Part shown: positions 1-15,119 of the stretch, one piece after another
How positions within the stretch are numbered: the first letter of the stretch is position 1
How the letters are laid out: each line of letters opens with the position of its first letter
IMG/VR virus record: IMGVR_UViG_2713896900_000010
DNA from: a virus
Taxonomy: Duplodnaviria; Heunggongvirae; Uroviricota; Caudoviricetes
Strand: one strand, 5' to 3'
DNA length: 16,377 nt
Made by a program: the position numbers and the translations under genes
Notes under the pieces: model-generated
Database searches by the model: none
Told to the model about the DNA's origin: nothing
What the model saw: only the letters and a program-made list of their open reading frames with translations

Positions 1-348
1 CTACTGCATACGGCGCTGTTGCTGCTTTTCTGTATGCACGCGTTTTACTATCTTATAAATCCATTGCAGCGTCAGATTATATTTCTTCGCTAATTCGGCG
101 TAGTTGCGCCCATCGCACTCGCTATAGATTTGATAGTCCCGCTCCGAGGCTCGCCTGGCGATTCCTTTTGGAAAATAAATGCTTTGTCCGCCCCAGTTTC
201 GCATCATGCGATCGGCAATGGCATAGCCAACATTTTCCGCAGATGAGCTATCCAGATTGATGCTCTCAATCAGAACTTGCGAAGCATGAAACGCCAAATC
301 GTTAATGATCTCCGGTGTCCGGGTCATCTCTTTTGCTTTTTGTATCAT
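1..348 (-). CDS. Mor/C-family transcriptional activator (115 aa)
   Basis: Complete minus-strand ORF (ATG at 348-346, stop at 3-1) with GGAG 7 nt upstream of the start. The C-terminal half (GGQSIYFPKG...DGRNYAELAKKYNLTLQWIYKIVKR) follows the conserved HTH region pattern I recall for phage Mu Mor/C activators (GGxxxYIPxG...NGRNxxEL...Y...T...YK). Recalled similarity, not a database hit. Confidence 0.75.
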   Translation of the reverse strand: MIQKAKEMTRTPEIINDLAFHASQVLIESINLDSSSAENVGYAIADRMMRNWGGQSIYFPKGIARRASERDYQIYSECDGRNYAELAKKYNLTLQWIYKIVKRVHTEKQQQRRMQ

Positions 349-903
349 TTTTCATCTCCATATATCTTGCACCCTGTATGGACTCTGATGTGAGTTACAC
401 CACGGATATCCGCTAAGTTGGTGCAATTACTGCTTTTCAATACATTCAACACGCAAATAAATAATCACAATGTATATGCAATAAAAATTAAAACGAATTA
501 TAAATTCACAAAACAAATATATTATTTTCATTACATGTCTTATCAACAGGAGTGCCATTTTACACGATACTGTATACATATACAGTGCTATTTATCATTT
601 TTATCGCCTACTTTTCAAAAAGCTCGTTTCCCTCACAGTCGAGGATTTTTTTAAACAAACTTTAAAAATCAAATAAGTAACGACCATGATTGCAATATGT
701 CATCCCCTTCATTACACATAACGCAGGATTTATCTAACTGGCAGCCATTTTATCCTTAGTTCTCTATTTTGAGTTGGGAGATTAATTGGCGAACATGTTA
801 ATTCGAAGAGAACACATTTTTTAAAGTTATTTATTAAAGCTTTTTTCATTCTTCAGCAAAGAGATAAGCAGACACTGGTATCTCACTTATCAGGAGATAT
901 CGT
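349..903. promoter_or_regulatory. AT-rich divergent intergenic control region between the activator gene and the lysis/tail genes
   Basis: 555 bp at roughly 30% GC versus about 50-55% in flanking genes; many A/T tracts. The only ORF here (418-654) has no RBS and a low-complexity product. Contains the LexA-box-like palindrome at 568-587. Confidence 0.5.
568..587. promoter_or_regulatory. LexA (SOS) box-like operator
   Basis: TACTGTATACATATACAGTG matches the enterobacterial SOS box consensus TACTGT(AT)4ACAGTA at 18 of 20 positions, including both CTGT and ACAG half-sites with exact 8 bp spacing; the arms ACTGTATA/TATACAGT are a perfect inverted repeat. Which promoter it controls cannot be resolved from sequence alone. 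Confidence 0.6.
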
Positions 904-1191
904 ATGAAAAAAATCACTTTTCCCCGTCTTTCCGGTTGGCTGGCTGCAGCCATTGCTCTGATTGCATTGATCGGCTGGACATCTTCAGCACAAATTCCGG
1001 TCGTCATTTATAAACTAAGCCTGGTTTCACTTTCCGCAGTGCTGGGATACTGGCTCGATCGTAGTTTGTTCCCCTGGGCACGGCCTGACTTTTTTTGCCC
1101 CAGGAAGGAACCGCGTTGCTACGCAGCGGCAATGATTCGTCGCGCCATCATCGTGGCTGCAGTCTGCCTTTCCGTCGCGTTAGGGCTATAG
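904..1191 (+). CDS. Putative holin / lysis membrane protein (95 aa, about 3 predicted transmembrane segments)
   Basis: AGGAG 7 nt upstream of ATG; MKK start; three hydrophobic stretches (WLAAAIALIALIGW, IPVVIYKLSLVSLSAVLGYWL, AIIVAAVCLSVALGL); its stop overlaps the start of the downstream endolysin (TAGTGATG). Function inferred from size, topology and position. Confidence 0.5.
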   Translation: MKKITFPRLSGWLAAAIALIALIGWTSSAQIPVVIYKLSLVSLSAVLGYWLDRSLFPWARPDFFCPRKEPRCYAAAMIRRAIIVAAVCLSVALGL

Positions 1192-1193
1192 TG

Positions 1194-1799
1194 ATGTGGC
1201 TAAAATATATCGCGCCTATGATTATTTTCGTTCTTTTCCCGCTTAACGCGTCTGAACCACCACAAGCCTCTCTGGCATGGAGAAATGAATTGATTCGTAC
1301 CGCCCGAGAAGTCTGGGGACTGAACGCTCCGGTGGCTGACTTTGCCGGGCAATTACACCAGGAGTCCGCCTGGCAGCCAATGGTACGTTCCCCCGTTGGC
1401 GCACAAGGTATGGCGCAATTTATGCCTGCCACAGCGACATGGATAAGCCAACTGTATCCACAGCTACATGAAAACAAACCGTATAACCCAACCTGGGCAA
1501 TCCGGGCGTTGGTACAGTACGACCAGCATTTATGGAACAACATCTCTGCAAAAAATGATTGTCAACGTATGGCGTTTACTCTAAGCGCCTATAACGGTGG
1601 TCAGGGTTGGATTAACCGGGATAAAAAACTGGCGACAACAAAAGGGTTAAATGCCGCCATCTGGTTTGGTCATGTTGAGCAAGTCAACGCCGGGCGCAGC
1701 GCCGCAAACTGGCGAGAAAATCGTCACTATCCGAAGATGATTCTCTATCAACACGCCGCCCGCTACTTACTCTGGGGACAGGCAAGCTGTCTTCACTAA
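1194..1799 (+). CDS. Endolysin, soluble lytic transglycosylase (SLT domain) with N-terminal signal peptide or SAR domain (201 aa)
   Basis: Contains hallmark SLT motifs (catalytic-Glu context LHQESAWQP; GMAQFMPATA; AYNGG). The ORF track extends it to 1095, but the ATG at 1194 is coupled to the upstream stop, has AGGG upstream, and is followed by a hydrophobic N-terminus (MWLKYIAPMIIFVLFPLNA|SEPP). Confidence 0.8.
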   Translation: MWLKYIAPMIIFVLFPLNASEPPQASLAWRNELIRTAREVWGLNAPVADFAGQLHQESAWQPMVRSPVGAQGMAQFMPATATWISQLYPQLHENKPYNPTWAIRALVQYDQHLWNNISAKNDCQRMAFTLSAYNGGQGWINRDKKLATTKGLNAAIWFGHVEQVNAGRSAANWRENRHYPKMILYQHAARYLLWGQASCLH

Positions 1800-1811
1800 T
1801 CAGAGGGGCCG

Positions 1812-2126
1812 ATGAAACTCAGTATCGATTTTTGGGAAGTGATCTCCTTTATGCTTTCATTCGTTGGATTAATGTTTGCTGCCGGAAAATTGCTGTTAGC
1901 GCAAATTGAAAAAAGACTTAATGAGCGTTTTGAGTCCCTGGAAAATGCCCGCAGGGAATCAGAAACAAGCTGGTCGAAACTGGAAAGAGAATTTCTCGAA
2001 TTTCGTGCCGAACTTCCACTGTATTATGTCCGCAGAGAGGATTATCTTCGTGGACAAGCAGTATTAGAAGCAAAGCTGGATGCCTTATATAGCAAAATAG
2101 AGTTATTACAACGTGGCAGTTATTAA
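1812..2126 (+). CDS. Lysis-cassette accessory protein; N-terminal transmembrane anchor plus coiled coil (i-spanin-like or releasin-like), 104 aa
   Basis: GAGGGG RBS 4-9 nt upstream; one N-terminal hydrophobic helix (VISFMLSFVGLMFAAGKLLL) followed by a charged heptad-like region; position immediately after the endolysin. Function is an inference. Confidence 0.45.
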   Translation: MKLSIDFWEVISFMLSFVGLMFAAGKLLLAQIEKRLNERFESLENARRESETSWSKLEREFLEFRAELPLYYVRREDYLRGQAVLEAKLDALYSKIELLQRGSY

Positions 2127-2130
2127 ATAC

Positions 2131-2165
2131 ATCCCCACCTTTACGTAAGTGTGGGGATTTTTTAT
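2131..2165 (+). terminator. Rho-independent terminator after the lysis cassette
   Basis: Inverted repeat ATCCCCAC (2131-2138) / GTGGGGAT (2151-2158) followed by a run of six T (2158-2163), 5 nt after the stop codon of the 1812-2126 gene. Confidence 0.6.
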
Positions 2166-2272
2166 AACCATTCAATTTTTTCTCTAAATCACATTAAAAG
2201 ATTCTTCACTCTCACTGCTTCAGAATACATTTCAACGATAACGAAGTGAGCGGTAATTAAGGTACACCTCAT

Positions 2273-2728
2273 ATGAAAATTTTATCTGTAATGAATTATG
2301 TCGTGGTCAGATTACGTGATCGGCATCCTGAAATGGACATATTCATTTCATCTACGGATGCCCAAAAATATATTCCACAGACACAACAGATTACGGTGAT
2401 TATTAATTATAGCGGTTCTGTCTTCACCACGCCCGAAAGTAGTGATGCCATTGTACAACAGCAAATACTCCGCTTAACCGCCACCGTTATTGTTGGCAAA
2501 AATTGTGATGCGTTAAACGCACTTGATCACATACGCAGCGCATTGGGAGGCCTTCAGCCTCCTGATTGCGATCATCTTATTTGGCTTGAAAAAGAAATTA
2601 ATACGGGTGAGAGCGACGGTTTCTGCCGCTACATCCTGGAAATGGCGACCAGCTCGCTGTTTATCGCTGAACAGGACAGCACGGATCTTCCCCTGCTTAC
2701 TGAAGTTAATTACGAGGAAACTGAATGA
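2273..2728 (+). CDS. Hypothetical protein at the head-proximal end of the tail operon (151 aa); possible tail completion / sheath terminator-type protein
   Basis: ATG with AAGG upstream; first gene after the terminator; stop overlaps the next start (ATGA); occupies the position held by small tail-completion genes upstream of the sheath in Mu-type clusters. No motif recognised. Confidence 0.45.
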   Translation: MKILSVMNYVVVRLRDRHPEMDIFISSTDAQKYIPQTQQITVIINYSGSVFTTPESSDAIVQQQILRLTATVIVGKNCDALNALDHIRSALGGLQPPDCDHLIWLEKEINTGESDGFCRYILEMATSSLFIAEQDSTDLPLLTEVNYEETE

Positions 2729-2922
2729 AATATATCTACAACGGTCCGGCAAGCGGCGTCACCCTTGCCGACGGTCAAGAAATCTTATTATGGCCGAACA
2801 GTGAAATTGATCTGCCAGAAGACAATGAGTGGGTTATGACCATGATTGCCCGAAATCACTTGATTCTCATCATTCCCCAGGAAGAACAAAATAACGTAGA
2901 GGAAATTGTACATGGCAGCTAA
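2725..2922 (+). CDS. Small hypothetical protein (65 aa), translationally coupled between the upstream ORF and the sheath gene
   Basis: GAGGAAA RBS, ATGA overlap with the upstream stop, and its own stop overlaps the sheath start region. No recognisable motif. Confidence 0.4.
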   Translation: MKYIYNGPASGVTLADGQEILLWPNSEIDLPEDNEWVMTMIARNHLILIIPQEEQNNVEEIVHGS

Positions 2923-4333
2923 TTATCTGCACGGTGTAGAAACCATTGAAATTGAAACCGGCCCGCGTCCGGTAAAAGCAGTAAAATCTGCTGTAATCGC
3001 TTTAATCGGTACCGCTCCCTGTGGCCCGGTAAACCAACCGACGCTGTGCCTTTCTGAAAGTGACGCGGCACAGTTTGGATCGACTCAGGCTAACTTTACG
3101 ATCCCGCAGGCGCTGAAGGCGATTTATGATCACGGTGCCGGTACAGTGGTGGTAATTAATGTGCTGGATCCAGTAAAACATGGACTACACATTACCAATG
3201 AAACCATTACGTTCAATAGTGACGATAAAGCTAAATTAACTCATCCGGGGGTAAGTTCGGTAACGCTAAGAGCAAGTATCAGTTCCACTACATACAAAAA
3301 TACATCATACAGCGTTAATGCCGCTGACGGCGTTATTACCCGTACAGGAACTGAAATTGCGGCAGGAGCAAAGGTTTACGCGACTTATACCTATGTTGAC
3401 CCTACAAAGGTCACCGCAGCCGATATTATCGGGGCCGTTAATACCGCAGGCGATCGCACGGGGATGAGGCTCCTTCAGGACACTTATAACTTGTATGGTT
3501 TCTACGCCAAAATTCTGCTGGCACCCGTTTTTTGTACGCAAAAATCAGTGACTACCGAGCTGATTGCACAAGCGGAAAAACTCGGTGCGATTACCTACAT
3601 TGATGCCCCAATTGGGACTACATTCCAGCAGGTATTGGCTGGACGCGGTTCGCAAGGCGCAATCAACTTCAATACCAGCTCTGATCGTGCACGTTTATGC
3701 TACCCACACGTCAAAGTTTACGATGGCATCACTAACCAGGAAATTCTTGAACCTCTCTCTTCGCGCGCTGCCGGGCTACGTGCCAAAGTAGACCTCGAAA
3801 AAGGTTTCTGGTGGAGCAACTCAAACCAGGAAATTCAGGGTATTACCGGTATCGAACGTTCGCTTTCCGCAATGATTGATGATCCACAAAGCGAAGTGAA
3901 TCAGCTCAACGAAAACGGTATTACCACTATTTTCAATAGTTATGGTTCTGGTCTGCGCCTGTGGGGCAACCGCACAGCGGCATGGCCAACCGTGACTCAT
4001 ATGCGTAACTTTGAAAACGTTCGCCGGACAGGCGATGTAATTAATGAGTCAATCCGTTATTTCAGTCAACAGTATATTGATATGCCGATCAATCAGGCAC
4101 TGATTGACGCGCTGACCGAATCGGTAAATACCTGGGGCCGAAAACTGATTGCCGACGGCGCACTGCTTGGCTTTGAGTGCTGGTACGATCCGGCGCGAAA
4201 TTCACCGGCTGAACTCAGTGCCGGGCATTTATTGCTCAGCTATAAATTTACCCCACCGCCGCCGCTGGAACGTCTGACGTTTGAAACTGAAATTACCTCT
4301 GAATATTTAGTCTCTCTGGAGAGCAATCGCTAA
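2912..4333 (+). CDS. Contractile tail sheath protein (Mu L / P2 FI-like), about 473 aa
   Basis: Size and position immediately upstream of the tube gene; overall sequence character typical of myovirus sheath proteins. Preferred start is the ATG at 2912 (GAGGAAA 7 nt upstream) rather than the TTG at 2906 reported by the ORF track. Confidence 0.85.
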   Translation: MAANYLHGVETIEIETGPRPVKAVKSAVIALIGTAPCGPVNQPTLCLSESDAAQFGSTQANFTIPQALKAIYDHGAGTVVVINVLDPVKHGLHITNETITFNSDDKAKLTHPGVSSVTLRASISSTTYKNTSYSVNAADGVITRTGTEIAAGAKVYATYTYVDPTKVTAADIIGAVNTAGDRTGMRLLQDTYNLYGFYAKILLAPVFCTQKSVTTELIAQAEKLGAITYIDAPIGTTFQQVLAGRGSQGAINFNTSSDRARLCYPHVKVYDGITNQEILEPLSSRAAGLRAKVDLEKGFWWSNSNQEIQGITGIERSLSAMIDDPQSEVNQLNENGITTIFNSYGSGLRLWGNRTAAWPTVTHMRNFENVRRTGDVINESIRYFSQQYIDMPINQALIDALTESVNTWGRKLIADGALLGFECWYDPARNSPAELSAGHLLLSYKFTPPPPLERLTFETEITSEYLVSLESNR

Positions 4334-4857
4334 TGGCTGGAAAAATTCAAATTAACCGTATTACCAACGCCAATATTTATCTCGATGGTAATAATCTTTT
4401 AGGCCGTGCAACAGAAATTAAATTGCCAGATGTCAGTTTAATTATGCAGGAACATAAAGCACTGGGCATGGTGGGTAAAATAGAACTCCCGGCTGGTTTC
4501 GATAAACTGGAGGGGGAAATTAAATGGAACTCCTTTTACCAGGACGTAATGCGTAAAACGGCAAACCCGTGGCAGGCTGTAGCATTACAGTGTCGCTCCA
4601 GTATCGATTGTTATAACTCTCAGGGGAAAGCGAATCAATTAGCGTTAGTCACACATTTAACCGTGATGTTTAAAAAAAATCCACTGGGCACATTTAAACA
4701 GAATGAAAACCCGGAATTCAGCAGCGCCTTTGGCTGCACTTATATTAAACAAGTAGTCGATGGTGAAACGCTGCTTGAACTGGATTATATGGCGAATATT
4801 TTCCGCGTTAACGGCGTGGATCAATTAAGTACCTATCGCAATAACATCGGTGGCTAA
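4333..4857 (+). CDS. Tail tube protein (Mu M / P2 FII-like), 174 aa
   Basis: TAATG stop/start overlap with the sheath gene; size and position canonical for a tube protein following the sheath. Confidence 0.8.
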   Translation: MAGKIQINRITNANIYLDGNNLLGRATEIKLPDVSLIMQEHKALGMVGKIELPAGFDKLEGEIKWNSFYQDVMRKTANPWQAVALQCRSSIDCYNSQGKANQLALVTHLTVMFKKNPLGTFKQNENPEFSSAFGCTYIKQVVDGETLLELDYMANIFRVNGVDQLSTYRNNIGG

Positions 4858-4861
4858 GTTA

Positions 4862-4881
4862 TTCGGGGCTACGGCCCCGAA
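4862..4881 (+). other. Intercistronic stem-loop between the tube and chaperone genes
   Basis: Perfect 8 bp GC-rich stem TTCGGGGC / GCCCCGAA with a 4 nt loop (TACG), 5 nt after the tube stop codon; no following U-tract, so more likely an mRNA-stability or attenuation element than a full terminator. Confidence 0.5.
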
Positions 4882-4907
4882 CTCCGAAAAATAAATAAGG
4901 ATACAAA

Positions 4908-5225
4908 ATGAAAGAGCATTATATCTTACAGTTTCCCTTTACGTCGGCAGCAGGAAATAATATCGACACGCTACAATTACGTCGCCTGAAAGTCAAAGAT
5001 ATGCGTAATGCACGCCGGGTCAGCGAAAAGCCGGAAGAATGGGATGAACCGCTAATGGCAGCGATGACCGGGCTGGTACCAGAAGATTTAGCTGAAATGG
5101 ATTTGCTGGATTACCAGGCGTTGCAGAAACGATTTCAATCCATGCTTACCGTGGCTACAGAATCCCCCCTTGCTATGGCAGGCAATGGCGCTACTGGCGA
5201 GATGGTTTCGCTTTCCACCCAGTGA
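4908..5225 (+). CDS. Tail assembly chaperone, P2 gpE-like (105 aa)
   Basis: AAGGAT RBS; size and position between tube and tape measure; residue pattern resembles P2 gpE as I recall it. A possible frameshift extension is described in the findings. Confidence 0.6.
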   Translation: MKEHYILQFPFTSAAGNNIDTLQLRRLKVKDMRNARRVSEKPEEWDEPLMAAMTGLVPEDLAEMDLLDYQALQKRFQSMLTVATESPLAMAGNGATGEMVSLSTQ

Positions 5226-5300
5226 GATTGACTCGCTCACGATAGATGACTTTAGTCACTGGCTGGATGAAGCCAGCGCTCAAATAAAAATCGAATATGA

Positions 5301-5323
5301 CTCGCAGACCTGATGTCTGCGAG
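5301..5323 (+). other. Stem-loop in the chaperone to tape-measure spacer
   Basis: Perfect 9 bp inverted repeat CTCGCAGAC / GTCTGCGAG with a 5 nt loop (CTGAT), followed by TTCTTC; the loop contains the stop codon of the +1-frame extension ORF. Confidence 0.45.
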
Positions 5324-5413
5324 TTCTTCAAAGCTCGCCAGGTTTATTTCTTCCCAGCCCATTTTTCAGAAAACTAACCAGCGGGCCATCACCAATCTAT
5401 AAGAGAAACAATT

Positions 5414-7789
5414 TTGGCCAACGATATTATTACCCAGCTTCAGACGCGTAATGAGACGTTGACGCAGGCAATAGCCCGTTACGGCTCACTCAACGCCAGA
5501 ACATTGTTAGCACTCTCTTCTCAGCAAGCGGCAGTAATCAAACTAACGCAGCAACTTGCCGATTCCGCTCTCCGCCTGGAGGAAAATAGCCGAAACCGCG
5601 CTGATCTGATGGAGAAAACCCAAACATTTGCCGGGCAATTTAGCAAAGTATTCAATGTTGAAATCCTTGACTGGAAGTTGCCGTATGAGTTTCAGGACAA
5701 CATGGTCAATTTGGCGACCAAAGGTGGGATGAATGATACAACCCGCGAGACACTCAGCCTTAATCTGCGCGACTGGAGCATGGATTTTAACCAGCAGCAG
5801 ACCACCTTACAGAACGCAGCCCAGGTGCTAATCGAAGGTAATTTGTCGTCGATGCAGGATCTCAACCGTTATATGCCGGAGATCGCCAAAGCGGCCACCA
5901 CCACGCGCGAAAGTGCTGAAACATGGGCGAATGCCGCGCTCGCGACTCATGATCGACTGAATATTGCGCCAGAAAATTTCCACGCCGCGCAAAACATGAT
6001 GTACGGCATTAGCAAAAACGGTGGGCCTACCGTTGCCGGGCAAACACAGTGGATAGACAAATTTGCAGTTAAAACTGGCGCACAGGGTTTAGAAGGTATG
6101 GCTGAACTGACCGCCACAATGCAGATCGCAATGAAAAATGGTGCCAGCGCCAGTGTGGCGGCGGAGAATTTCGACCACTTTCTGCAAACCATCTTTTCGA
6201 AAAAAACCGATAACTGGTTCGTCAGCCAGGGCGTCGATCTGCAAGGCTCTCTGCTTGAACATCAGCAAAACGGCATGGGTGTTAGCGAAGCCATGATTCA
6301 TATCGTGCAAACGCAACTTGAGAAGATGAATCCGGCGATCCTCGACACCTTCAAACGCACCATGCAAATTGAAGATTTATCTGCTCGCAGCAACGCACTG
6401 CAATCGATAGTGACGCAATTTAATCTGGGCGAAATGTTCGGCGATGCGCAAACAGTGGAATTCCTGGCACCTGCGCTGGCGAATATGGAAGAGTATCGCC
6501 AGTTAAAAGCCTCCGCCATGCAAGACAGCGGTAAGAATCTGATTGACAACGATTTTTCTGTGCAGATGGCCTCGCCCATTGAACAAACTAAAACGTTACA
6601 ACTGGCGTTAAATGATTTATGGCTCAGCATTGGCTTGCAATTAATGCCGCTGATTGGCGAGTTGGCGCAAAGCCTTACTCCGGTGATTCGCCAGTTCAGC
6701 GCCTGGCTACGTGAACACCCGGCGCTGGTGCAAAACATTGCGAAAATCGTCGGAGCGATTTGGCTGTTTAACGGCGCACTGAATGTTTTAAAGCTGGGCG
6801 CGAACGTCATCGCCTCGCCGTTTATTCGTCTGGTCGATATCTTCCTGAAAGTCAGGGCAAGTCTGACGCTCACAGGCGCGGCAAGTAAGATGCTATCAGC
6901 GGTTAAGTCATTATATAACGGCGCAAAATGGCTAACGCAACTGCTTGGCCGTGGCCTGATTGGCGCATTGAAACTGGCAGGTCAGACCGTCTTCTGGTTG
7001 GGTAGAGTTTTATTGATGAATCCCATTGGTCTGGTCATCACCGCGATTGCGGGCGCTGCTTATCTGATCTATCGCCACTGGGAACCTATCTCCAGATTCT
7101 TTTCCGCCATCTGGCAACGTATCACCACGGCCTTTGACGGCGGCATTGCAGGGATTTGCCGGTTAATTCTCGACTGGTCGCCGCTGGAGTTGTTCTACAG
7201 CGCCTTTTCCAGTGTGATGAATTGGTTTGGTGTCGAGATGCCTGCAAGTTTTAGCGAGTTCGGCAGCAATCTTCTGGGCAGTCTGGTTGACGGCATAATG
7301 AATGCTTTCCCCGCTCTGAAAGGCATTATTGATCAGGTCAAAAACGCCTTACCGGACTGGCTAAAAACCACGATGGGTATTAGCACAGAAGGATCGGCTA
7401 CGGCTGTTACAAGCACGACGAATACCGCATCAATCTCCCCCACAACCGTTGTTCCAGGCGTTGCCGGAGCGATTTTAACGCCTCCTGTGGGCAAACAACT
7501 CGCGCCATCCAGTAAAACGACAACGTCGCCATCGACACCAGCGGCAAAAAATACAGCCGCCAAACCCGCATCGGCCTCTTTACCTGGTAAATCTGTAACC
7601 AAACCGGCGACGCTCCCCTCCCGTTCCTCTGGAAAAGTTCAGGTGAATTTTTCGCCACAAATTACCGTGCAGAGTAACGGACAAAACACCACTAAAGACA
7701 TTCAGAACGTGTTGACGATAAGTAAACGCGAACTGGAAAGAATGATTAACGACGTAATGGCGCAACAACAGCGCCGGGGGTATGCCTGA
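5414..7789 (+). CDS. Tail tape measure protein (791 aa)
   Basis: Largest gene of the cluster, directly after the chaperone; coiled-coil-rich N-terminal half, hydrophobic segments in the middle/C-terminal part, Ser/Thr/Pro/Ala-rich tract near the C-terminus. The first in-frame start after the upstream stop is a TTG at 5414 with a weak AAGAG motif upstream. Confidence 0.85.
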   Translation: MANDIITQLQTRNETLTQAIARYGSLNARTLLALSSQQAAVIKLTQQLADSALRLEENSRNRADLMEKTQTFAGQFSKVFNVEILDWKLPYEFQDNMVNLATKGGMNDTTRETLSLNLRDWSMDFNQQQTTLQNAAQVLIEGNLSSMQDLNRYMPEIAKAATTTRESAETWANAALATHDRLNIAPENFHAAQNMMYGISKNGGPTVAGQTQWIDKFAVKTGAQGLEGMAELTATMQIAMKNGASASVAAENFDHFLQTIFSKKTDNWFVSQGVDLQGSLLEHQQNGMGVSEAMIHIVQTQLEKMNPAILDTFKRTMQIEDLSARSNALQSIVTQFNLGEMFGDAQTVEFLAPALANMEEYRQLKASAMQDSGKNLIDNDFSVQMASPIEQTKTLQLALNDLWLSIGLQLMPLIGELAQSLTPVIRQFSAWLREHPALVQNIAKIVGAIWLFNGALNVLKLGANVIASPFIRLVDIFLKVRASLTLTGAASKMLSAVKSLYNGAKWLTQLLGRGLIGALKLAGQTVFWLGRVLLMNPIGLVITAIAGAAYLIYRHWEPISRFFSAIWQRITTAFDGGIAGICRLILDWSPLELFYSAFSSVMNWFGVEMPASFSEFGSNLLGSLVDGIMNAFPALKGIIDQVKNALPDWLKTTMGISTEGSATAVTSTTNTASISPTTVVPGVAGAILTPPVGKQLAPSSKTTTSPSTPAAKNTAAKPASASLPGKSVTKPATLPSRSSGKVQVNFSPQITVQSNGQNTTKDIQNVLTISKRELERMINDVMAQQQRRGYA

Positions 7790-8742
7790 TGTATGCCGTT
7801 TTAGGAGAGATTGAATTTAAGGTTGTCACATTCTGGGACGGCTTTAAAAGCACAATGGGCGTGGACTACGCCACACATGCCCGTATAGAAGGCAAACCCG
7901 GCGTGCAGTTTATTGGCGATAAGCTGGATATGCTGGCACTGGAATTTTCCTTGCACAGCCAGTTTTGCCAACCCACAACAGAGCTGAATCGACTGCGTGA
8001 AGCCATGCTTACCCACAAAGCGATGGCTCTGGTGTTTGGCAATGGCGATTATCGCGGCTGGTTTGTGATTACGGAGCTAACCGCCACCCACCAGCACACC
8101 GATCCCTGGGGCAATGTGATTGCTCAAAGCGGAACAATGTCGCTCCAGGAGTACACCGGCGCTCCTAAAAATCCACTCTTGCCCCCGGCAATTACTACCC
8201 AAGACCCGAATATTGACGAAAAGGCGAGCGATTTTCCAGACATGGTGGAGTCCTGGTTTGATCAGATATTGAACGCCATTGAAGAAGGTATGCGTAAGGC
8301 CAAAGAGATGCTCGATGAGCTGACTCAAGCCATTGAAGATATTAAAAAAACGGTGGCAAAAGTGAAAGCACTGGTTAAAGAGGCCAAAGCGTTAAAAGAA
8401 AAGTGTGAAAAGATAATTACGTCGTTGAAAAAGACTATCGACGCCATCGAAACCCTGTTTAAACAGCCCATGGATCTGCAAACGCTGGCAGGACTCCCAA
8501 AAGCGTTGTCGGCGCAGATTAACGCTTTACTGGGTAACATGCCAGGTATCCGGGACTGCGCCAAAGACGCCAGCACGCTGGTTGACCATGCTCAGGCGCT
8601 TTTCGACGACATTACCAACGACATCGCTGAAGCGACGTTCGATAAAGCCGCAACGTTGGTTGAGCAGGCACGAACAACGGTACAACAAACCACTCCCGCA
8701 GTGAGCCAGCTTGCTGCCGCGACCATTACGAGGAGCTGGTGA
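7789..8742 (+). CDS. Tail protein with gpU / Mu N-like N-terminal domain and long alpha-helical C-terminal extension (317 aa)
   Basis: ATGA overlap with the tape-measure stop; N-terminal ~120 aa follows the pattern of P2 gpU-type tail proteins; C-terminal half is Ala/Lys/Glu-rich and heptad-like; occupies the Mu gene N position. Confidence 0.55.
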   Translation: MYAVLGEIEFKVVTFWDGFKSTMGVDYATHARIEGKPGVQFIGDKLDMLALEFSLHSQFCQPTTELNRLREAMLTHKAMALVFGNGDYRGWFVITELTATHQHTDPWGNVIAQSGTMSLQEYTGAPKNPLLPPAITTQDPNIDEKASDFPDMVESWFDQILNAIEEGMRKAKEMLDELTQAIEDIKKTVAKVKALVKEAKALKEKCEKIITSLKKTIDAIETLFKQPMDLQTLAGLPKALSAQINALLGNMPGIRDCAKDASTLVDHAQALFDDITNDIAEATFDKAATLVEQARTTVQQTTPAVSQLAAATITRSW

Positions 8743-8951
8743 TGCGATACCTTGAACATATCACCACCGACGGCGAACGCTGGGATAATCTGGCATGGCA
8801 TTACTACGGCGATGCGCTGGCTTATGAACGCATCATCGCCGCCAATCCACATGTCGCCATTTACCCGGTACTGCCTTCCGGTATTCAACTCATTATTCCG
8901 GTCATTTCCGTCAACAAAACCTTATCGGAGATACCACCATGGCTGAGATAA
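8742..8951 (+). CDS. Tail protein X-like (LysM-like, P2 gpX family), 69 aa
   Basis: ATG at 8742 overlapping the upstream stop, AGGAG 6 nt upstream; the motif LEHITTDGERWDNLAWHYYGD...IIAANPHV resembles the gpX LysM-like signature; sits just before the gpD-like gene as in P2/Mu-type clusters. Confidence 0.65.
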   Translation: MRYLEHITTDGERWDNLAWHYYGDALAYERIIAANPHVAIYPVLPSGIQLIIPVISVNKTLSEIPPWLR

Positions 8952-9979
8952 GCGTATCTGGTGGCGTCTTTGCCACACTCGCGCCCATTTTTACCCTTTG
9001 GTATGGACATAAAGATATCACTTATGACATCACGCCCTATGTCACCAGCATCAGTTACCACGACAGCATCAAAAACGAGTCAGATACCATCGCCATTACA
9101 CTGGATGACACCGATGGACGTTGGATAAAAGAGTGGTATCCCGGCAAAGGCGATACGCTGGCGCTGCATATGGGTTATCAGGGGGAGACGCTCCTCGATT
9201 GCGGTCAGTATATTATTGATAAAATTGATATTTCAGCACCACCTTCCACGGTAAATATTGATGGCATTGCCACTTCCGTCAATCAGGCGCTGCGTACCCG
9301 TAACAGTCAGGGCTTTGAAGAAACGACGCTTTCGGCCATCGCCAGTCGTATCGCGCAAACTCACGGTCTGAAGCTGGTGGGCAAAATCGAGCCGCTGGCG
9401 ATTGACCGGGTGACACAGTACGGCGAAACCGATGTTGGATTTCTCAAGCGTCTGGCCAGCGAATATGGCTATGCCGTGAAAGTGACGACAAAAGAGCTAA
9501 TTTTTTCACATCTGCCGACACTACGCTGCCTGGCGCCAGTGAAAACCATCGACCGCAAAGAGGTTTCGCACTTTACCTTCAAAGACACCATTAATCGCAT
9601 CTACAAGAACGCCACCGTACAGCATCAAAATAGTAAGAAAAAAGAACTGGTTATCTACACTCACGACAGCCAGCAAAAACCGTCAGCCCGTGGAGTCGGC
9701 ACCAGTGCCGACACGTTGAAACTCAACAGCCGGGCGACGGATGTTGGCGCGGCACAGGCAAAGGCCAACGCTGCACTCGACAGCCACAACGAATATCAGC
9801 AAACCGGAACACTCAGGATGATGGGCTGCCCGGAACTGACAACAGGCAATAAAATCGAACTCATTGATTTTGGTATTCTTTCTGGACAATGGCTGATTGA
9901 TAAATCTACTCACAGTTTTGTGCGCAGCGGCTATACCACTGAAATCGACGTTTCGCGCGGGCCAGCAACCAGCCAGTAA
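8939..9979 (+). CDS. Baseplate hub protein, P2 gpD / Mu P-like (346 aa)
   Basis: Size, position after gpU/gpX-like genes, GGAG RBS; overall pattern consistent with late control gene D family tail proteins. Confidence 0.8.
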   Translation: MAEISVSGGVFATLAPIFTLWYGHKDITYDITPYVTSISYHDSIKNESDTIAITLDDTDGRWIKEWYPGKGDTLALHMGYQGETLLDCGQYIIDKIDISAPPSTVNIDGIATSVNQALRTRNSQGFEETTLSAIASRIAQTHGLKLVGKIEPLAIDRVTQYGETDVGFLKRLASEYGYAVKVTTKELIFSHLPTLRCLAPVKTIDRKEVSHFTFKDTINRIYKNATVQHQNSKKKELVIYTHDSQQKPSARGVGTSADTLKLNSRATDVGAAQAKANAALDSHNEYQQTGTLRMMGCPELTTGNKIELIDFGILSGQWLIDKSTHSFVRSGYTTEIDVSRGPATSQ

Positions 9980-9988
9980 GGAGGCACT

Positions 9989-10648
9989 ATGAAGGGAGTA
10001 ACCCGGCAAACGGGGATTATCAGCGATATTGACGAAACCAGCGTTCGGGTGCGAGTCACACTGCCAGAGTGCGACAATCTGAAGAGTAACTGGCTTGCGG
10101 TACTTCAACGTAATTCCCAGGACAATAAAGACTACTGGCTACCGGATATGGGTGAGCAGGTGGAAGTTCTGCTGGACGACAACGGCGAAGATGGCGTGGT
10201 ACTTGGGGCCGTTTATTCTACGGTTGACACCGCGCCTGTGGCCTCGCGAGATAAACGTTACGTCCAGTTTTCTGATGGCGCAGCGTTTGAATATGACCGC
10301 AGCACACACCAGCTTACGATTAACGGCGGTATTGAGAAAATCGTGATTGAGGTTATTGACCGTACTAACCTGACATCACCCAACGTTGAGGTTAAAGCCC
10401 AACAAGTCACCGTGACTTCCGATACCGTCGATATTAAAGCGGCGACAGTGACGGTAGATGCGCCCATGAGCACCTTTACTGGTAACGTCACGGTAATGAA
10501 AAAACTCACCTGGCTGGGTGGCATGGCAGGAAGTGGAGGCATCGGTAACGCCGCCACGATAACTGGCAATGTCAACGTGATTGGTAACGTTCAGGCCAGC
10601 GGCACATTGCAGGATAGCGGTGGTAACTCAAATCACCATTCACACTAG
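9989..10648 (+). CDS. Baseplate central spike, P2 gpV / Mu gp45-like (219 aa)
   Basis: Strong AAGGAGG RBS; N-terminal OB-fold-like region followed by repetitive beta-strand-rich Val/Thr segment (VTVTSDTVDIKAATVTVDAP...) and a C-terminal His cluster (NHHSH) typical of spike apexes. Confidence 0.8.
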   Translation: MKGVTRQTGIISDIDETSVRVRVTLPECDNLKSNWLAVLQRNSQDNKDYWLPDMGEQVEVLLDDNGEDGVVLGAVYSTVDTAPVASRDKRYVQFSDGAAFEYDRSTHQLTINGGIEKIVIEVIDRTNLTSPNVEVKAQQVTVTSDTVDIKAATVTVDAPMSTFTGNVTVMKKLTWLGGMAGSGGIGNAATITGNVNVIGNVQASGTLQDSGGNSNHHSH

Positions 10649-10653
10649 CTTTT

Positions 10654-10684
10654 AACCCGCCTGATGGCGGGTTTTCTCTTTTTA
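10654..10684 (+). terminator. Rho-independent terminator inside the baseplate module
   Basis: Stem AACCCGCC (10654-10661) / GGCGGGTT (10666-10673), loop TGAT, followed by TTCTCTTTTT; 6 nt after the spike gene stop. Confidence 0.7.
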
Positions 10685-10746
10685 ATCAATCAGTTTTCTA
10701 AATCGCTTTAATATCCCCACTGTCCGTTCAGGGCGAAAATAAGCAC

Positions 10747-11106
10747 ATGAACACAAAAACACGCCCCTCAACGCTGCACTGGCAACCCGCCTTGCAGCGG
10801 CCTGAAGAATACGTCTGCGGACTGGATGATATTCACCAGGCAATACACATCATTCTGCGCACGCCGCGCGGCAGTGATCCCCACAGACCGCTGTTTGGCA
10901 GCAACTTGTGGCACTACATCGATTACCCCATCGAGCGGGCAATCCCGCATGTGGTACGGGAGTCGATGGAAGCCATCCGCCAGTGGGAACCGCGATGTCG
11001 GTTGCTGAAGGTAGCACCGATAATCGACGGTGAACATCTGACGTTACGTGTGCAATGGCGCGCCGCTGACGGCGTAATCAACTCAACGGAGGTGTTATGG
11101 CGATAG
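10747..11106 (+). CDS. Baseplate wedge protein, gpW / gp25-like (119 aa)
   Basis: Size and position before the J-like gene; product overlaps the downstream start by 10 nt. Confidence 0.75.
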   Translation: MNTKTRPSTLHWQPALQRPEEYVCGLDDIHQAIHIILRTPRGSDPHRPLFGSNLWHYIDYPIERAIPHVVRESMEAIRQWEPRCRLLKVAPIIDGEHLTLRVQWRAADGVINSTEVLWR

Positions 11107-12212
11107 CCGAACCCAATTTTATTGACCGCGATCCTGCGCAAATTACCAGCGAGATGATTGCGCAATACGAAGATGCCAGCGGTAAAAAACTCTATCCGGC
11201 ACAGGCCGAACGGTTACTCATCGACCTGTTTGCCTATCGTGAAAACCTTGTGCGCATCGCCATTCAGGAAGCGGCGAAACAAAACCTGGTCGCGTATTCC
11301 CGCGCACCAATGTTGGATTATTTAGGGGAGCTGGTGGGTGTTCACCGTTTACCTGCGCAACCGGCAAAAACGACGTTGCAGTTTTCGGTCGTCAGTGCGT
11401 ATACCAGCAATATCCTGATTCCCCAGGGGACGCGGGCCAGTGCCTCTGACAGCGTGATGTTCGCCACCGATGAAGATGTTCTGCTTCCGGCCAGGAGTTT
11501 GCATATCGCCGTTCCGGCCACCAGCCTCGCAGCAGGTGAACAGGGCAATGGCTGGCAGCCTGCACAGATTAGCGCCCTTGTTGACAGGATCGGTTATTAC
11601 GATATCAACGTGACTAATCTGACTCCCACAACCGGCGGTTGTGGTGAAGAGAACGATGATGCACTACGCCAGCGTATACAACTGGCGCCAGAAAGCTTCA
11701 GTAATGCCGGCAGCTATGGCGCATATCGCTTTCATACACTTTCGGTTAGCCAGTCAATTATTGACGTTGCAGTACTGGGGCCAGATGAAGGGTTGCCAGA
11801 AGGCTGCGTCGAGCTCTACCCGCTAACCCTGAATGGTCTGCCGGGAACCGAGCTACTCGCGCAAATTGAACAAGAAGTGAGTAAAGAGAAAAAACGTCCG
11901 CTGACTGACAAAGTAAGTGCGAAATGTGCTCTTAGGGTGCCGTATGAAATTCGTGCGCAGCTAACGCTGTTTACCACCGCCGATCAGGAGACAACACTGG
12001 CTGCGGCGCGTAAAGCGATTAGCCTCTGGACGCAACAGCGGCAGAAACATCTGGGGCAGGACATTGTGCCAAACCAGATAATCAAAGTGTTACAAGTCGA
12101 TGGTGTCTATGACGTTGTGCTGAACATGCCTACAAAACGTATTTTGCAGGCGCATGAATGGGCGGAATGCACTGTAATAGACGTCACGATTGCCGGAGTC
12201 AGCGATGGATAA
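11097..12212 (+). CDS. Baseplate J-like protein (P2 gpJ / Mu gp47-like), 371 aa
   Basis: GGAGGTG RBS; size and position canonical for the baseplate J family; overlaps the downstream start. Confidence 0.8.
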   Translation: MAIAEPNFIDRDPAQITSEMIAQYEDASGKKLYPAQAERLLIDLFAYRENLVRIAIQEAAKQNLVAYSRAPMLDYLGELVGVHRLPAQPAKTTLQFSVVSAYTSNILIPQGTRASASDSVMFATDEDVLLPARSLHIAVPATSLAAGEQGNGWQPAQISALVDRIGYYDINVTNLTPTTGGCGEENDDALRQRIQLAPESFSNAGSYGAYRFHTLSVSQSIIDVAVLGPDEGLPEGCVELYPLTLNGLPGTELLAQIEQEVSKEKKRPLTDKVSAKCALRVPYEIRAQLTLFTTADQETTLAAARKAISLWTQQRQKHLGQDIVPNQIIKVLQVDGVYDVVLNMPTKRILQAHEWAECTVIDVTIAGVSDG

Positions 12213-12837
12213 ATTGCTGCCACCGCCGCCGCTTGCCAGCGATGAGCGTTTTTCAACTCTGGCAAATATCGCCGCCGAACGTTTTGCGCAACTCGATCTG
12301 ACGGCATTAATGATATACCTGGTCGACCTGGTTGATGCTTCGGCATTACCTGCCCTTGCAGAACAATTTCACGTTCAGGGGCTGGAAGGTTGGTTATTTA
12401 CTACTGATGAACAAGAGAAGCGTGAGTTAATTAAGCGAGCCATTGAGTTACATAAATATAAAGGAACAGTTTGGGCGGTACGGCGAGTACTGGAAATACT
12501 CTCATTGCCTGGAACTATTGCCGAATGGTTTGAATATGGCGGGAAAGCTTATTTTTTTAAGGTTGATATAGAACTGGTGGATAAAGGCATGGATGAAAAC
12601 CTTTTCAATGAGTTAGTTGAACTCATTCATGAATATAAAAACACACGTTCAAAACTGGAAGCATTAATCGTCTGGATCATTAACCAAAGTGCTATCCCTG
12701 TTATTAGCTGTGCGCTTTATGGGGGTGAACTGACGACGCTTTTACCTTTCCAGATACGGGAAGTACAACAAAACACAACAATCTTTTACGGAACAGGGCA
12801 ATGGAGCCTTGAAATTACATCTATTTACCCGGAGTAA
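12190..12837 (+). CDS. Baseplate/tail protein I-like (P2 gpI / Mu gp48-like), 215 aa
   Basis: Follows the J-like gene with overlapping coupling and precedes the tail fiber gene, the conserved J-I-H order. Confidence 0.7.
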   Translation: MPESAMDKLLPPPPLASDERFSTLANIAAERFAQLDLTALMIYLVDLVDASALPALAEQFHVQGLEGWLFTTDEQEKRELIKRAIELHKYKGTVWAVRRVLEILSLPGTIAEWFEYGGKAYFFKVDIELVDKGMDENLFNELVELIHEYKNTRSKLEALIVWIINQSAIPVISCALYGGELTTLLPFQIREVQQNTTIFYGTGQWSLEITSIYPE

Positions 12838-12839
12838 TT

Positions 12840-14498
12840 ATGGATAATGAGTTTTATACCCTCCTGACCGACAGGGGGATGGCAAAAATTGCCAGTGCTC
12901 TTGCGGATAAAAAACAACTACATCTGCAAAAGATGGCCGTTGGAGACGGCGGTGGGCAATATTACGAACCCTCGGCGAGTCAAGCAAAATTACGTCATGA
13001 AGTATGGCGTGGTGAGTTAAATACATTAACAGTTGCACCCAGTAATCCTAACTGGTTAATTGCGGAACTTGTACTGCCCGAAAATATCGGCGGCTGGTAT
13101 GTACGTGAAGTCGGCGTTTTTGATACTGACGGCGAACTTATTGCTATCGGTAAATTCCCAGAATCGTATAAACCGCTATTACCCGGCGGCAGCGGTAAGC
13201 AAGTTTGCATTCGTCTCATTATGGAAGTTTCCAACACGACTGCGGTAACACTCACCGTTGATCCCAGTATTGTACTGGCAACACGTGATTATGTTGATTC
13301 ACAACTGGATAAACATGCACGTTCGACTAATCATCCTGATGCTACGTTAATGCAAAAAGGCTTTACGCAGTTGAGTAACGCCACTGACAGTGATGACGAA
13401 ACTAAAGCGGCTACGTCAAAAGCGGTAAAAGCGGCGATGATTGAGGCACGAAACCATCGTCATACCTGGAGTCAAATTACTGATATTCCAGATGGTACGC
13501 TGACTCAAAAAGGAATTGTGAAGCTAAATAACGCGACCAATAGCACCAGCACGACGGAGGCAGCGACACCGAGCGCGGTTAAGGCGGCGTATGACCTGGC
13601 AAATGGTAAAGCTGCAGGCAGTCATACGCATCCCTGGGGGCAGATTACGGGTATTCAGGATGGCACCCTGACGCAAAAAGGGATTGTGAAGCTGAATAAT
13701 GCGACGGACAGCAACAGCACGACGGAGGCAGCCACGCCGAGTGCGGTTAAGGCGGCAATGGATAAGGCTAATGCTGCAGCTCCGGCTAATCATACTCACA
13801 CTAGTTTTTATACTACAAATGGAACATTTACAGTTCCTGATGGCGTAACTACATTATTTGTGGAAGTTATGGGCGGCGGCGGTGGTGGTGCCGGAGGAGC
13901 ACAATCATCATATTATGAAGCATGTGGTGGCAATACAGGTGAATTGCTCGTTGGTTACTTAAACGTGGAACCAAGCCAGCATTTTTCAGTAAAGGTTGGG
14001 GCTGGAGGTAATGGAGGTCCATTTTGGAATAATCCACCTGTTTCACAAGTAAAGTATTCATCGGATAACACAGAGAAAACACAAAAAAGCTTTGATGGTG
14101 GTGACTCTTCATTTTCTAATATGATTGCCAAAGGAGGTCATGGGGGATATAACATTTATCACTTTAACACTACGCAGCCTTGTATAAAATTCATTGACCA
14201 TCCAAATACTTATGCACCTGGCGCAATACGGTTATATGCAGAATTTTATCCTGGCAAGAATGGTGAAAATTCCATATATGGAAAAGGAGGGAGCGCTGGC
14301 ACTGTTATTACAGAATATCTGGATAATGGTGGAAGTAAGGCAATAATGACACATCCGACACCAGCAATAGGCTATGGTTCTGGAGGAGCGGGAGGATCTT
14401 ATTTGCCTCCTTTTGAATATGACAATAATGAATTAACAAACTTAGGCAATACTAGCGGAACAAAAGGTGCCTCTGGTTTCGTAAAAATATCATGGTAA
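12840..14498 (+). CDS. Tail fiber protein (552 aa) with conserved N-terminal domain, tandem shaft repeats and Gly-rich low-GC C-terminal receptor-binding region
   Basis: N-terminus (MDNEFYTLLTDRGMAKIASALA...WLIAELVLPENIGGWYVREVGVFDTDGELIAIGKFP) is the conserved baseplate-attachment domain of Mu S / P2 H / lambda Stf-type fibers; three tandem repeats with the motif TLTQKGIVKLNNAT...AATPSAVKAA; C-terminal ~230 aa rich in Gly motifs. Confidence 0.85.
   Translation: MDNEFYTLLTDRGMAKIASALADKKQLHLQKMAVGDGGGQYYEPSASQAKLRHEVWRGELNTLTVAPSNPNWLIAELVLPENIGGWYVREVGVFDTDGELIAIGKFPESYKPLLPGGSGKQVCIRLIMEVSNTTAVTLTVDPSIVLATRDYVDSQLDKHARSTNHPDATLMQKGFTQLSNATDSDDETKAATSKAVKAAMIEARNHRHTWSQITDIPDGTLTQKGIVKLNNATNSTSTTEAATPSAVKAAYDLANGKAAGSHTHPWGQITGIQDGTLTQKGIVKLNNATDSNSTTEAATPSAVKAAMDKANAAAPANHTHTSFYTTNGTFTVPDGVTTLFVEVMGGGGGGAGGAQSSYYEACGGNTGELLVGYLNVEPSQHFSVKVGAGGNGGPFWNNPPVSQVKYSSDNTEKTQKSFDGGDSSFSNMIAKGGHGGYNIYHFNTTQPCIKFIDHPNTYAPGAIRLYAEFYPGKNGENSIYGKGGSAGTVITEYLDNGGSKAIMTHPTPAIGYGSGGAGGSYLPPFEYDNNELTNLGNTSGTKGASGFVKISW
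13314..13790 (+). repeat. Three tandem ~55 aa / ~165 bp repeats within the tail fiber shaft
   Basis: Protein repeats ending at HRHTW / HTHPW / HTHT; the DNA of units 2 and 3 (about 13501-13590 versus 13669-13758) is roughly 85% identical. Confidence 0.6.
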
Positions 14499-14504
14499 TT
14501 AAAA

Positions 14505-15119
14505 ATGACAAAATATGCATGTTTTGATCCTGAAACATTTGTTGTTTTGGACTGGTTCGATACAGAACGTTACAACTATCCCAAAGTAGAACATTTAGTT
14601 GAAATAACTGATCAGCAATGGCAGATATATGCAAGAGATAATATTCCAACTTGGATTAACTGTGAAGATTTATCCTTCATTTCTATGCCACCACCAGATA
14701 AATTTCACAAACTGAAAAAAGGAGAATGGATAGTTGATACAGATTCAATACTTAAATTTATTTCAGAAATAAAAGAAGATATAATAAGAAGAGTAAAATC
14801 CAAACGAGATTACATCACAACCGATTACATCATCCTCAACGGCCATCACTTCCACAGTGATACAAATAGCCGAATCCAACAACTCTCACTCACAAAAATG
14901 GGAGCCGAAAAACAAATTCCGCCAGGTTTAATGTGGAAAACTAAAAATAACGGTCTGATTGAGTTAACCAATGAAATCGCCGCCCAGTTTGAATCCGTCA
15001 CCATGGCTCACGATATGCGCCTGTTTGCCAACGCCCAGCGCCATATTACGGCGGTGGAAGCTCTGGGCGATATTCAGGCGGTGCTCGACTACGACTACTC
15101 CACAGGCTGGCAACCATGA
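14505..15119 (+). CDS. Tail fiber assembly protein (Tfa/U-like chaperone), 204 aa
   Basis: Immediately downstream of the fiber gene; C-terminal half (higher GC) resembles the conserved Tfa domain ending ...DYDYSTGWQP; N-terminal half is low-GC like the fiber C-terminus. Confidence 0.7.
   Translation: MTKYACFDPETFVVLDWFDTERYNYPKVEHLVEITDQQWQIYARDNIPTWINCEDLSFISMPPPDKFHKLKKGEWIVDTDSILKFISEIKEDIIRRVKSKRDYITTDYIILNGHHFHSDTNSRIQQLSLTKMGAEKQIPPGLMWKTKNNGLIELTNEIAAQFESVTMAHDMRLFANAQRHITAVEALGDIQAVLDYDYSTGWQP

Follow-up and report, generated by a model that had tools for sequence, protein, structure and literature searches.

Programmed frameshifting in the tail assembly chaperone genes of tailed phages is textbook biology, and shifts of -1, -2 or +1 are used in different phages (PMC5009743). 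The E+E′ protein of phage P2 is made by frameshifting (Christie et al., 2002, as cited in PMC3931495), the gp41 gene of Mu is shifted by -2 (Xu, Hendrix & Duda, 2004, as cited in PMC5009743 and PMC3498833), and in lambda the extension carried by the long form is thought to bring the tube protein to the tape measure (PMC5009743). Cited figures are a short-to-long ratio of about 30:1 for lambda and an efficiency of about 2% for Mu (PMC5009743, PMC3498833). For influenza PA-X, +1 slippage in the P site on UUU_C was proven by a junction peptide on UCC_UUU_CGU, and the authors foresaw a wider UUU_C class with restricted A- and E-site codons; "PA-X-like" UUU_CGN sites were described for fijiviruses, CBPV/Lake Sinai viruses and amalgaviruses (PMC3498833). 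Here, we analyzed a stretch of 16,377 nucleotides (nt) from a Caudoviricetes record (IMG/VR IMGVR_UViG_2713896900_000010), referred to as the window, in which the tail assembly chaperone gene contains a second reading frame (E′) shifted by +1. The original prediction for this DNA had placed a programmed +1 frameshift at a run of six C (C6) in that gene. A pair of proteins, E and E+E′, produced via a shift into the +1 frame was found to be well supported by comparison of related sequences, with the conserved sequence CGA_UUU_C, 30 bases upstream of the C6 tract, as its probable site. Coordinates of all features are given in Table 1.

E′ in the +1 Frame of the Tail Chaperone Gene

Frame 0 of the chaperone gene runs from ATG 4908 to TGA 5223–5225 and is preceded by the Shine-Dalgarno sequence AAGGA at 4897–4901. 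The gpE-like identity that had been proposed for its 105-amino acid (aa) product was confirmed by the position of the gene next to the tube and tape-measure genes and by a match of residues 6–80 to Pfam Phage_TAC_7 (PF10109; E=2e-19, 69.7 bits, cut-off 25), a family described as "tail assembly chaperone proteins, E, or 41 or 14". Besides, the protein matched PHROG 166 "tail protein". Translation of the +1 frame likewise agreed with the original prediction, as a TAG at 5089–5091 was followed by a frame that is open from 5092 to TGA 5311–5313 and reads ...NPPLLWQAMALLARWFRFPPSEIDSLTIDDFSHWLDEASAQIKIEYDSQT. The +1-frame peptide of the window matched the E′-type family Phage_P2_GpE (PF06528) over 34 of 37 positions with 18.4 bits, which is below the cut-off of 23, and the equivalent region of a Lonsdalea homolog from the same clade reached 25.3 bits, which is above it. 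In a BLASTP comparison with residues 104–133 of P2 E+E′, the +1 peptide showed 33% identity (E=7e-4). The homology of E′ to P2 is convincing at the clade level and sub-threshold for the window sequence taken alone. Judged by these similarities, the two frames probably encode both parts of a P2 E+E′-type protein.

Related loci were collected from complete E. coli genomes and phage records, IMG/VR, one genome per species, the phages BcepMu and phiE255, and contigs with exact matches. E′ was found in the +1 frame of the chaperone gene in 172 loci, corresponding to 106 distinct 105-nt contexts, from Enterobacterales and Burkholderiales, including phages BcepMu, phiE255 and PhiKM. The alignment with related clusters that had been proposed as a check thus showed the +1 open reading frame (ORF) to be conserved at the protein level as well as in its frame. 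Close full-length matches to the element were present in 195 of 5,426 complete E. coli genomes, and the element was also found in Salmonella, Enterobacter, Pantoea, Lonsdalea, Pandoraea and Burkholderia phages.

Position of the Shift

If the position of the shift is homologous across the clade, it is confined by stop codons on both sides of the frame-0 codon TTT that encodes Phe76 in the window. In Pandoraea-like and Verminephrobacter loci (L061, L062, L065, L078–L090), the nearest upstream stop in the +1 frame lies 11 nt before TTT, so that the +1 frame opens 8 nt before it; in L054 the corresponding stop lies 17 nt before TTT. On the other side, frame 0 is closed in three loci (L034–L036) by a TAA 27 nt after TTT (window 5160–5162), which is 5′ of the position of the C tract. 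The stops limit the shift to a stretch that begins 8 nt before the first T of TTT and ends 26 nt after it, and because the +1-frame stops lie upstream and the frame-0 stops downstream of the homologous site, the shift would fall within 5125–5159 of the window.

Substitutions among 31 distinct close relatives were counted on a minimum spanning tree and are given here as synonymous/non-synonymous changes. In the region 5092–5132, frame 0 showed 46/2 and the +1 frame 8/40, and this relation was reversed at 5148–5169 (about 36/21 in the +1 frame and 10/47 in frame 0). The reversed pattern was also seen in the C-tract region 5163–5177 (42/16 in the +1 frame and 12/46 in frame 0), at 5178–5225 (42/13 and 7/48) and at 5226–5313 (124/73 and 27/170). 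The last change synonymous in frame 0 only was located at position 5138, and the recurrent changes from 5148 on (5148, 5151, 5155, 5157, 5163, 5166 and so on) were synonymous in the +1 frame. The selection pattern flips from frame 0 to the +1 frame between 5138 and 5148, and 15 nt or more before the C6 tract the sequence is already selected as +1-frame protein. In the 105-aa short protein, the last 29 residues were found to be essentially without constraint.

The Conserved CGA_UUU_C Element

UUU_C was the only invariant slippery element in 5125–5159. An in-frame TTT followed by C (5133–5136 in the window) was present exactly once per overlap in all 172 loci and all 106 contexts. The codon 5′ of TTT was CGA in 93 of the 106 contexts and CGG in two, while the remaining 11, referred to as the BcepMu-like class, carried TCC, GCC or TCT. 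The codon 3′ of TTT encoded Gln, Leu or Arg and invariably started with C (CAG in 51 contexts, CAA in 28, CTG in 15, CGC in 10, and CGT and CTT in one each); the window carries CAA, and CGC and CGT were confined to the BcepMu-like class (11 of 106). The heptamer CGATTTC occurs a single time in the window.

Conservation at the nucleotide level was further analyzed at degenerate third codon positions in the upstream part of the gene, 70 in the group of the window and 70 in a Pandoraea-like group that evolves independently of it. In the window group, four of the 70 sites were without change (mean 4.8 changes per site), two of them being those of CGA and TTT; in the Pandoraea-like group, three of the 70 were without change (mean 4.3), and two of these belonged to the same two codons. 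GC-rich relatives keep TTT although their long ORFs use TTC over TTT at about 5:1. This suppression of synonymous change at CGA and TTT indicates a functional nucleotide element, beyond conservation of the Arg-Phe dipeptide.

In the Pandoraea-like lineage, an invariant +1-frame TGA (within GTG AAG or CTG AAR) was observed 11 nt before the slip codon, and its third-position G was the only zero-change degenerate site of this lineage besides the third positions of CGA and TTT. This stop might terminate ribosomes that have shifted early, or its conservation might be coincidental.

A programmed +1 ribosomal frameshift at CGA_UUU_C (5130–5136) is the best-supported model for these observations, and we consider it probable. 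Most ribosomes would translate frame 0 to its stop and release the 105-aa chaperone, and a minority would shift by +1 at CGA_UUU_C; after a single Phe, these would continue from AAU 5137 to the E′ stop. Residues 1–76 and the 58 codons of the +1 frame would then form a 134-aa protein with the junction ...LQKRF/NPCLPW..., in which the chaperone domain is followed by a P2 E′-type C-terminal domain, as a functional analogue of P2 E+E′ and lambda gpGT. From the junction on, the predicted protein reads ...LQKRF/NPCLPWLQNPPLLWQAM..., also written ...LQKRF-NPCLPWLQNPPLLWQAMALLARWFRFPPSEID..., and its predicted tryptic junction peptide is FNPCLPWLQNPPLLWQAMALLAR, in which a single Phe is followed by +1-frame residues.

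Two routes to this product can be proposed, which are not mutually exclusive and would both give the identical 134-aa protein. In one of them, peptidyl-tRNA-Phe (anticodon GAA) in the P site would re-pair from UUU to the better-matched UUC, since the G:U wobble on UUU would be exchanged for a G:C pair after the +1 move. In a cell-free assay with E. coli components, TTT_C was one of the tetramers at which +1 shifts were efficient (bioRxiv 10.1101/2025.10.02.679949). The other route is suggested by the near-invariance of CGA: when this codon is in the P site, its I:A pair with tRNA-Arg(ICG) would distort the mRNA, and UUC would be presented in the A site. On yeast ribosomes, the purine-purine I:A pair of a P-site CGA was reported to shift the mRNA backbone, to flip nucleotide +4 and to move the A/P kink to between +4 and +5 (bioRxiv 10.1101/755652). 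In a tentative proposal that we regard as possible but rather doubtful, CGA_UUU_C would serve bacteria as a dedicated +1 signal that requires no tRNA slippage, the first U being skipped and Phe-tRNA decoding the +1-frame UUC. If true, it would to our knowledge be the first natural bacterial use of the CGA-induced loss of frame known from yeast lacking Mbf1/Asc1, and the P2/BcepMu-type tail modules and tailocins of an entire clade would set their chaperone ratio via CGA.

Several points weigh against the assignment of the shift to CGA_UUU_C. Its support is comparative throughout, and the I:A mechanism is an extrapolation from yeast ribosomes. No clear selection in either frame was seen at 5136–5147, and the switch point is resolved to about 10 nt, so the assignment to UUU_C rests on the invariance of the motif. 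TTT is the common Phe codon in the genome of the window (101 TTT vs. 46 TTC), and the tail genes contain 13 copies of TTT_C, which means that the tetramer alone cannot suffice; the A-site codon (CAA, CAG or CUG) is not rare, and the BcepMu class lacks CGA. Moreover, Phe and the following Gln, Leu or Arg end the conserved chaperone domain, which would explain some of the nucleotide conservation. No conserved RNA structure was detected in the 90 nt past the site in 12 lineages (minimum free energy z-scores from -2.3 to +1.2), and no conserved upstream Shine-Dalgarno-like stimulator was detected in the homolog sequences. A stimulatory hairpin at 5140–5188, proposed by RNAalifold for the close group, was rejected, as it showed nearly no covariation and both of its arms are constrained by protein sequence. 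Rfam families gave no match in 4800–5500. The shift is expected to have a low efficiency of a few per cent, which would set the ratio of short to long chaperone for tail assembly; a low value is in line with genes of this class and is probable because no conserved structure, Shine-Dalgarno-like stimulator or Rfam match was found.

Alternative Explanations

The kind, direction and product size of the event in the original prediction were retained in our analysis, whereas its site was not. The observations from which it started were correct: the six C are located in frame-0 codons TCC CCC CTT, the -1 frame closes 24 codons past the tract, and no in-frame X_XXY_YYZ heptamer is present in the chaperone gene. 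A shift at the C tract would give a protein of 134 aa, which agrees with the length of about 135 aa in the original prediction and is similar to that of P2 E+E′ (142 aa). At TCC CCC CTT (5163–5171), tRNA-Pro would slip by +1 on CCC_C or by -2 on C_CCC_CC with perfect re-pairing in both directions, and the predicted junction peptides are FQSMLTVATESPLLWQAMALLAR for +1 and FQSMLTVATESPPLLWQAMALLAR for -2. C6 is also the only run of at least six C or G in the 16.4-kb window, in which 17 A runs and 11 T runs of that length occur; the tract is stable within the window's own lineage, one-base deletions yield exactly the predicted fusion in some assemblies, and the Mu homolog reaches the same relative frame via the G run CGG_GGG_CGA (PMC5009743). 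However, the tract was restricted to the nearest relatives (C6 in L006 and L177–L181, C7 in L007), and more distant homologs in which the +1 ORF stays carry TCC TCC CCT, TCC GCC ACT, CCC ACA GCA, TCC GCA GCA and others at this position. These variants alter the frame-0 peptide (SPLAM, SSPAM, SATVM, PTATV) and keep the +1 peptide N-P-P/Q-L/Q-L-W-Q. The tract lies in sequence that is already selected in the +1 frame, changes upstream of it at 5148–5157 are also synonymous in the +1 frame and non-synonymous in frame 0, and frame 0 ends 5′ of the tract position in L034–L036. We consider C6 very improbable as the programmed site. Slippage of tRNA-Pro by +1 at CCC-C is known, and CCC_C is a plausible weak slippery site; such slippage at C6 may add a minor, lineage-specific share.

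A shift elsewhere in 5125–5159, or of another kind, such as +1 on CUU_A (5145–5148), a -2 event or transcriptional slippage, was also considered, as the substitution pattern by itself resolves the switch to 5138–5148 only. CUU is a +1 slippery codon in prfB and in Ty1, but CTT_A was found to vary among the homologs (CTC GGT, ATC ACG, GTC ACT, CTG TCT, GAA TTT and others). In the homolog sequences no triplet of this interval could re-pair 2 nt upstream, and slippage of RNA polymerase is implausible because the interval contains no homopolymer longer than 3 nt; taken together, we regard these possibilities as improbable. Finally, E′ might be made with no frameshift at all, as a free peptide of ~42–47 aa whose translation begins within the gene at a +1-frame codon (TTG 5170 or ATG 5185). 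An ATG is present in this frame at 5185–5187 and a TTG-started ORF (5170–5313) is listed, a gene caller placed a 42-aa ORF in L181, and the phage records list phiE255 gp16 and BcepMu gp42 as small genes of their own. On the other hand, E′ lacks a conserved start codon: TTG 5170 is replaced by CTG, CAG or CAA in relatives, and the PhiKM-like, Lonsdalea, Pandoraea-like and BcepMu lineages do not have the Met. No Shine-Dalgarno sequence is evident, and purifying selection in the +1 frame extends 5′ of both starts, as seen at 5148–5169. The P2 homolog is annotated as an E+E′ fusion. Independent initiation of E′ is unlikely in light of these comparisons, and we give it the lowest probability of the explanations considered here.

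Constitutive fusions at the C tract

In-frame 134-aa fusions of E and E′ were found in four loci in which the C run has lost one base (C6 to C5 in L182, C4 to C3 in L183–L185). The fusion proteins P0001 (...ATESPLLWQ...) and P0002 (...TESSLLWQ...) have the junction of the original prediction. They were rejected as support for a junction at the C tract, being 1-nt deletions of the C run that in several cases occur in assemblies with other broken genes. The tube gene was split in L183 and L185 and shortened in L182, and tape-measure calls were short in L182, L183 and L185; L184 was otherwise apparently intact. At least some of these assemblies probably contain homopolymer sequencing errors, and the fusions reveal the indel-proneness of the C run, in biology or in sequencing, and not recoding. 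Two further loci with joined frames were observed. In L056 (about 1400–1600) from Apirhabdus apintestini, the loss of 1 nt a few codons before the slip site has joined the chaperone domain permanently to the +1 frame (...DYLGCRPDFKKSQGW...), and in L055 from Erwinia tracheiphila an indel further downstream joins frame 0 to the end of E′. From their sequences, both look like decaying copies.

Genetic Context and Annotation

The chaperone gene is part of a contractile-tail module in the order sheath, tube, chaperone and tape measure (Table 1), and the rest of the window contains P2-type baseplate and fibre genes (GpU, GpD, V, W, J and tail fibre). No head or packaging genes were found in the window (1–16377), in which the P2/BcepMu-type set of contractile tail and fibre genes is complete. 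Rather than a full Mu-like phage, the window seems to be an R-type tailocin or a defective prophage. In isolate genomes, the related IMG/VR regions likewise span just 13–18 kb. The ORFs at the right end (15116–16377) are probably cargo or flanking host genes.

Table 1. Features of the 16,377-nt window. Positions are counted from the first nucleotide of the window.
Feature	Position	Strand	Basis
Late transcriptional activator	1–348	minus	
Holin	904–1191		
SLT lysin	1095–1799		
Lipoprotein	1812–2126		
Tail sheath	2906–4333		
Tail tube	4333–4857		PF04985
Tail assembly chaperone (gpE/Mu gp41 type), frame 0, 105 aa	4908–5225	+	ORF list, Pfam, PHROG
Interval confining the shift if its position is conserved among homologs	5125–5159	+	Stop codons
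CGA_UUU_C, proposed +1 frameshift site (UUU 5133–5135, Phe76; resumption at AAU 5137–5139)	5130–5136	+	Motif conservation
+1-frame continuation, 58 codons plus TGA 5311–5313	5137–5313	+	Translations, substitution pattern
C6 tract, lineage-specific, indel-prone, not a conserved site	5164–5169	+	Codons GAA TCC CCC CTT, homolog comparison
Putative E′-type domain (Phage_P2_GpE, PF06528), +1 frame, residues 93–126 of predicted fusion	5185–5286	+	
Hairpin of 9 bp, perfect, with the E′ stop TGA 5311–5313 in the loop	5301–5323	+	RNAalifold
Tape measure	5414–7789		PF10145
ORF matching PHROG enoyl-CoA hydratase/carnitine racemase-like (moron)	15116–15571		
RlaP (RNA repair pathway DNA polymerase beta family), running off the window end	15586–16377	minus	

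The part of the window around the chaperone gene (3408–6725, 3,318 nt) was 100% identical to a 4.88-Mb chromosome (L179; accession no. CP025676.1), and the best complete E. coli genomes showed only ~92% identity over the chaperone region 4880–5420. The DNA is likely to stem from an Escherichia other than E. coli or from a close enterobacterial relative. In RefSeq relatives, the 105-aa "phage tail assembly protein" is annotated alone and the next 190 nt are left empty. A sequence search of the PDB identified no relative of solved structure, and an NCBIfam search with E and with the fusion returned nothing informative.

The stem of the hairpin at the end of E′ (CTCGCAGAC / GTCTGCGAG) was retained in 12 homologs according to RNAalifold, with a compensatory change from GC to AU at one pair. 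It may act as an attenuator, in mRNA stability or in translational coupling. A second, GC-rich hairpin of 8 bp was observed at 4862–4881 (TTCGGGGC tacg GCCCCGAA), past the tube stop and before the Shine-Dalgarno sequence of the chaperone gene; it has no T run after it and hence was not called by the terminator scan.

Significance of the Motif

What seems to be new is this +1 motif, its breadth, and the missing or wrong annotation of its product. A search of full-text literature on UUU_C and tail assembly retrieved nothing beyond the PA-X paper and the 2016 review, and an earlier tabulation is possible. The conserved CGA_UUU_C would offer frameshift predictors a concrete +1 pattern, a natural bacterial counterpart to the influenza PA-X site, and a simple test bed for the influence of P- or E-site CGA on frame maintenance. 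It also illustrates that the most conspicuous homopolymer need not be the recoding site.

Comparison with Known Systems

The window is most similar to P2 gpE and gpE+E′ (FETUD operon), with which it shares the Phage_TAC_7 N-terminal domain, a probable GpE-type extension, the position between the tube and tape-measure genes, and the logic of a short and a long form with a common N-terminus (91/142 aa in P2, a predicted 105/134 aa in the window). In P2, a -1 shift takes place on G_GTT_TTT_TG near the end of E, and E′ overlaps gene T, whereas in the window the proposed +1 shift at CGA_UUU_C would take place 90 nt ahead of the end of frame 0, and E′ is separated from the start of the tape-measure gene by ~100 nt that include the hairpin and do not encode protein. 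Thus, by sequence comparison, the P2 protein family applies to the window and the -1 heptamer mechanism of P2 does not.

Mu gp41 shares with the window the name of its Pfam chaperone family, its gene position and the relative frame of the extension (+1 being equivalent to -2). In contrast to Mu, where the G run CGG_GGG_CGA lets tRNA-Gly re-pair at -2, the interval 5125–5159 of the window contains no run longer than three; the C6 tract of the window resembles the Mu G run, but its relatives carry non-repetitive sequence there. Lambda gpG/gpGT is comparable in function, with a fixed low ratio of long to short chaperone, and differs in the direction of its shift (-1 on G_GGA_AAG), in its slippery motif and in having no detectable sequence similarity of G/T to the window.

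With regard to the slippery sequence, influenza A PA-X (UCC_UUU_CGU) is comparable in its frame-0 UUU_C on which tRNA-Phe would re-pair better on UUC, in the conservation of flanking codons and in the lack of obvious RNA structure, and the UCC_UUU_CGC of BcepMu-class relatives is nearly the nonamer of PA-X. The site of the window differs in that it is a predicted one and concerns bacterial ribosomes and a gene of a DNA phage or tailocin. Besides, the conserved neighbour is the 5′ CGA in the class of the window, with CAA, CAG or CUG as A-site codon, and the 3′ CGN in PA-X. E. coli prfB (RF2; CUU_UGA with an upstream Shine-Dalgarno sequence) is another case of a +1 shift by P-site re-pairing on the bacterial ribosome, from which the window (GCGTTGCAGAAACGA TTT CAA) differs by having neither a stop nor a hungry A-site codon and no Shine-Dalgarno-like sequence ~3 nt upstream.

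In the GenBank record of BcepMu (L038, 803–1564), gp42 is labelled as the equivalent of "lambda G" and gp43 as the product of slippage from gp42. Our sequence comparison identifies gp41 as the chaperone (E) and gp42 as the E′ ORF in the +1 frame of gp41, predicted to be reached at UCC_UUU_CGC, and indicates that the two ORFs to which the record assigns the slippage are not the right pair. For the gp43 region, the phiE255 annotation shows an opposite-strand gene.

Within the TAC_7 protein family, -1 shifts are assigned to G_GTT_TTT_TG in P2 and L037, to T_TTT_TTC in L094 and to G_GGA_AAG, the lambda motif, in Pasteurellaceae (L063/L064), a -2 shift to CGG_GGG_CGA in Mu, and the +1 shift proposed here to CGA_UUU_C or NNY_UUU_CGN in the clade of the window. 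With three -1 motifs, the -2 of Mu and this +1, at least five recoding solutions would be present in one protein family.

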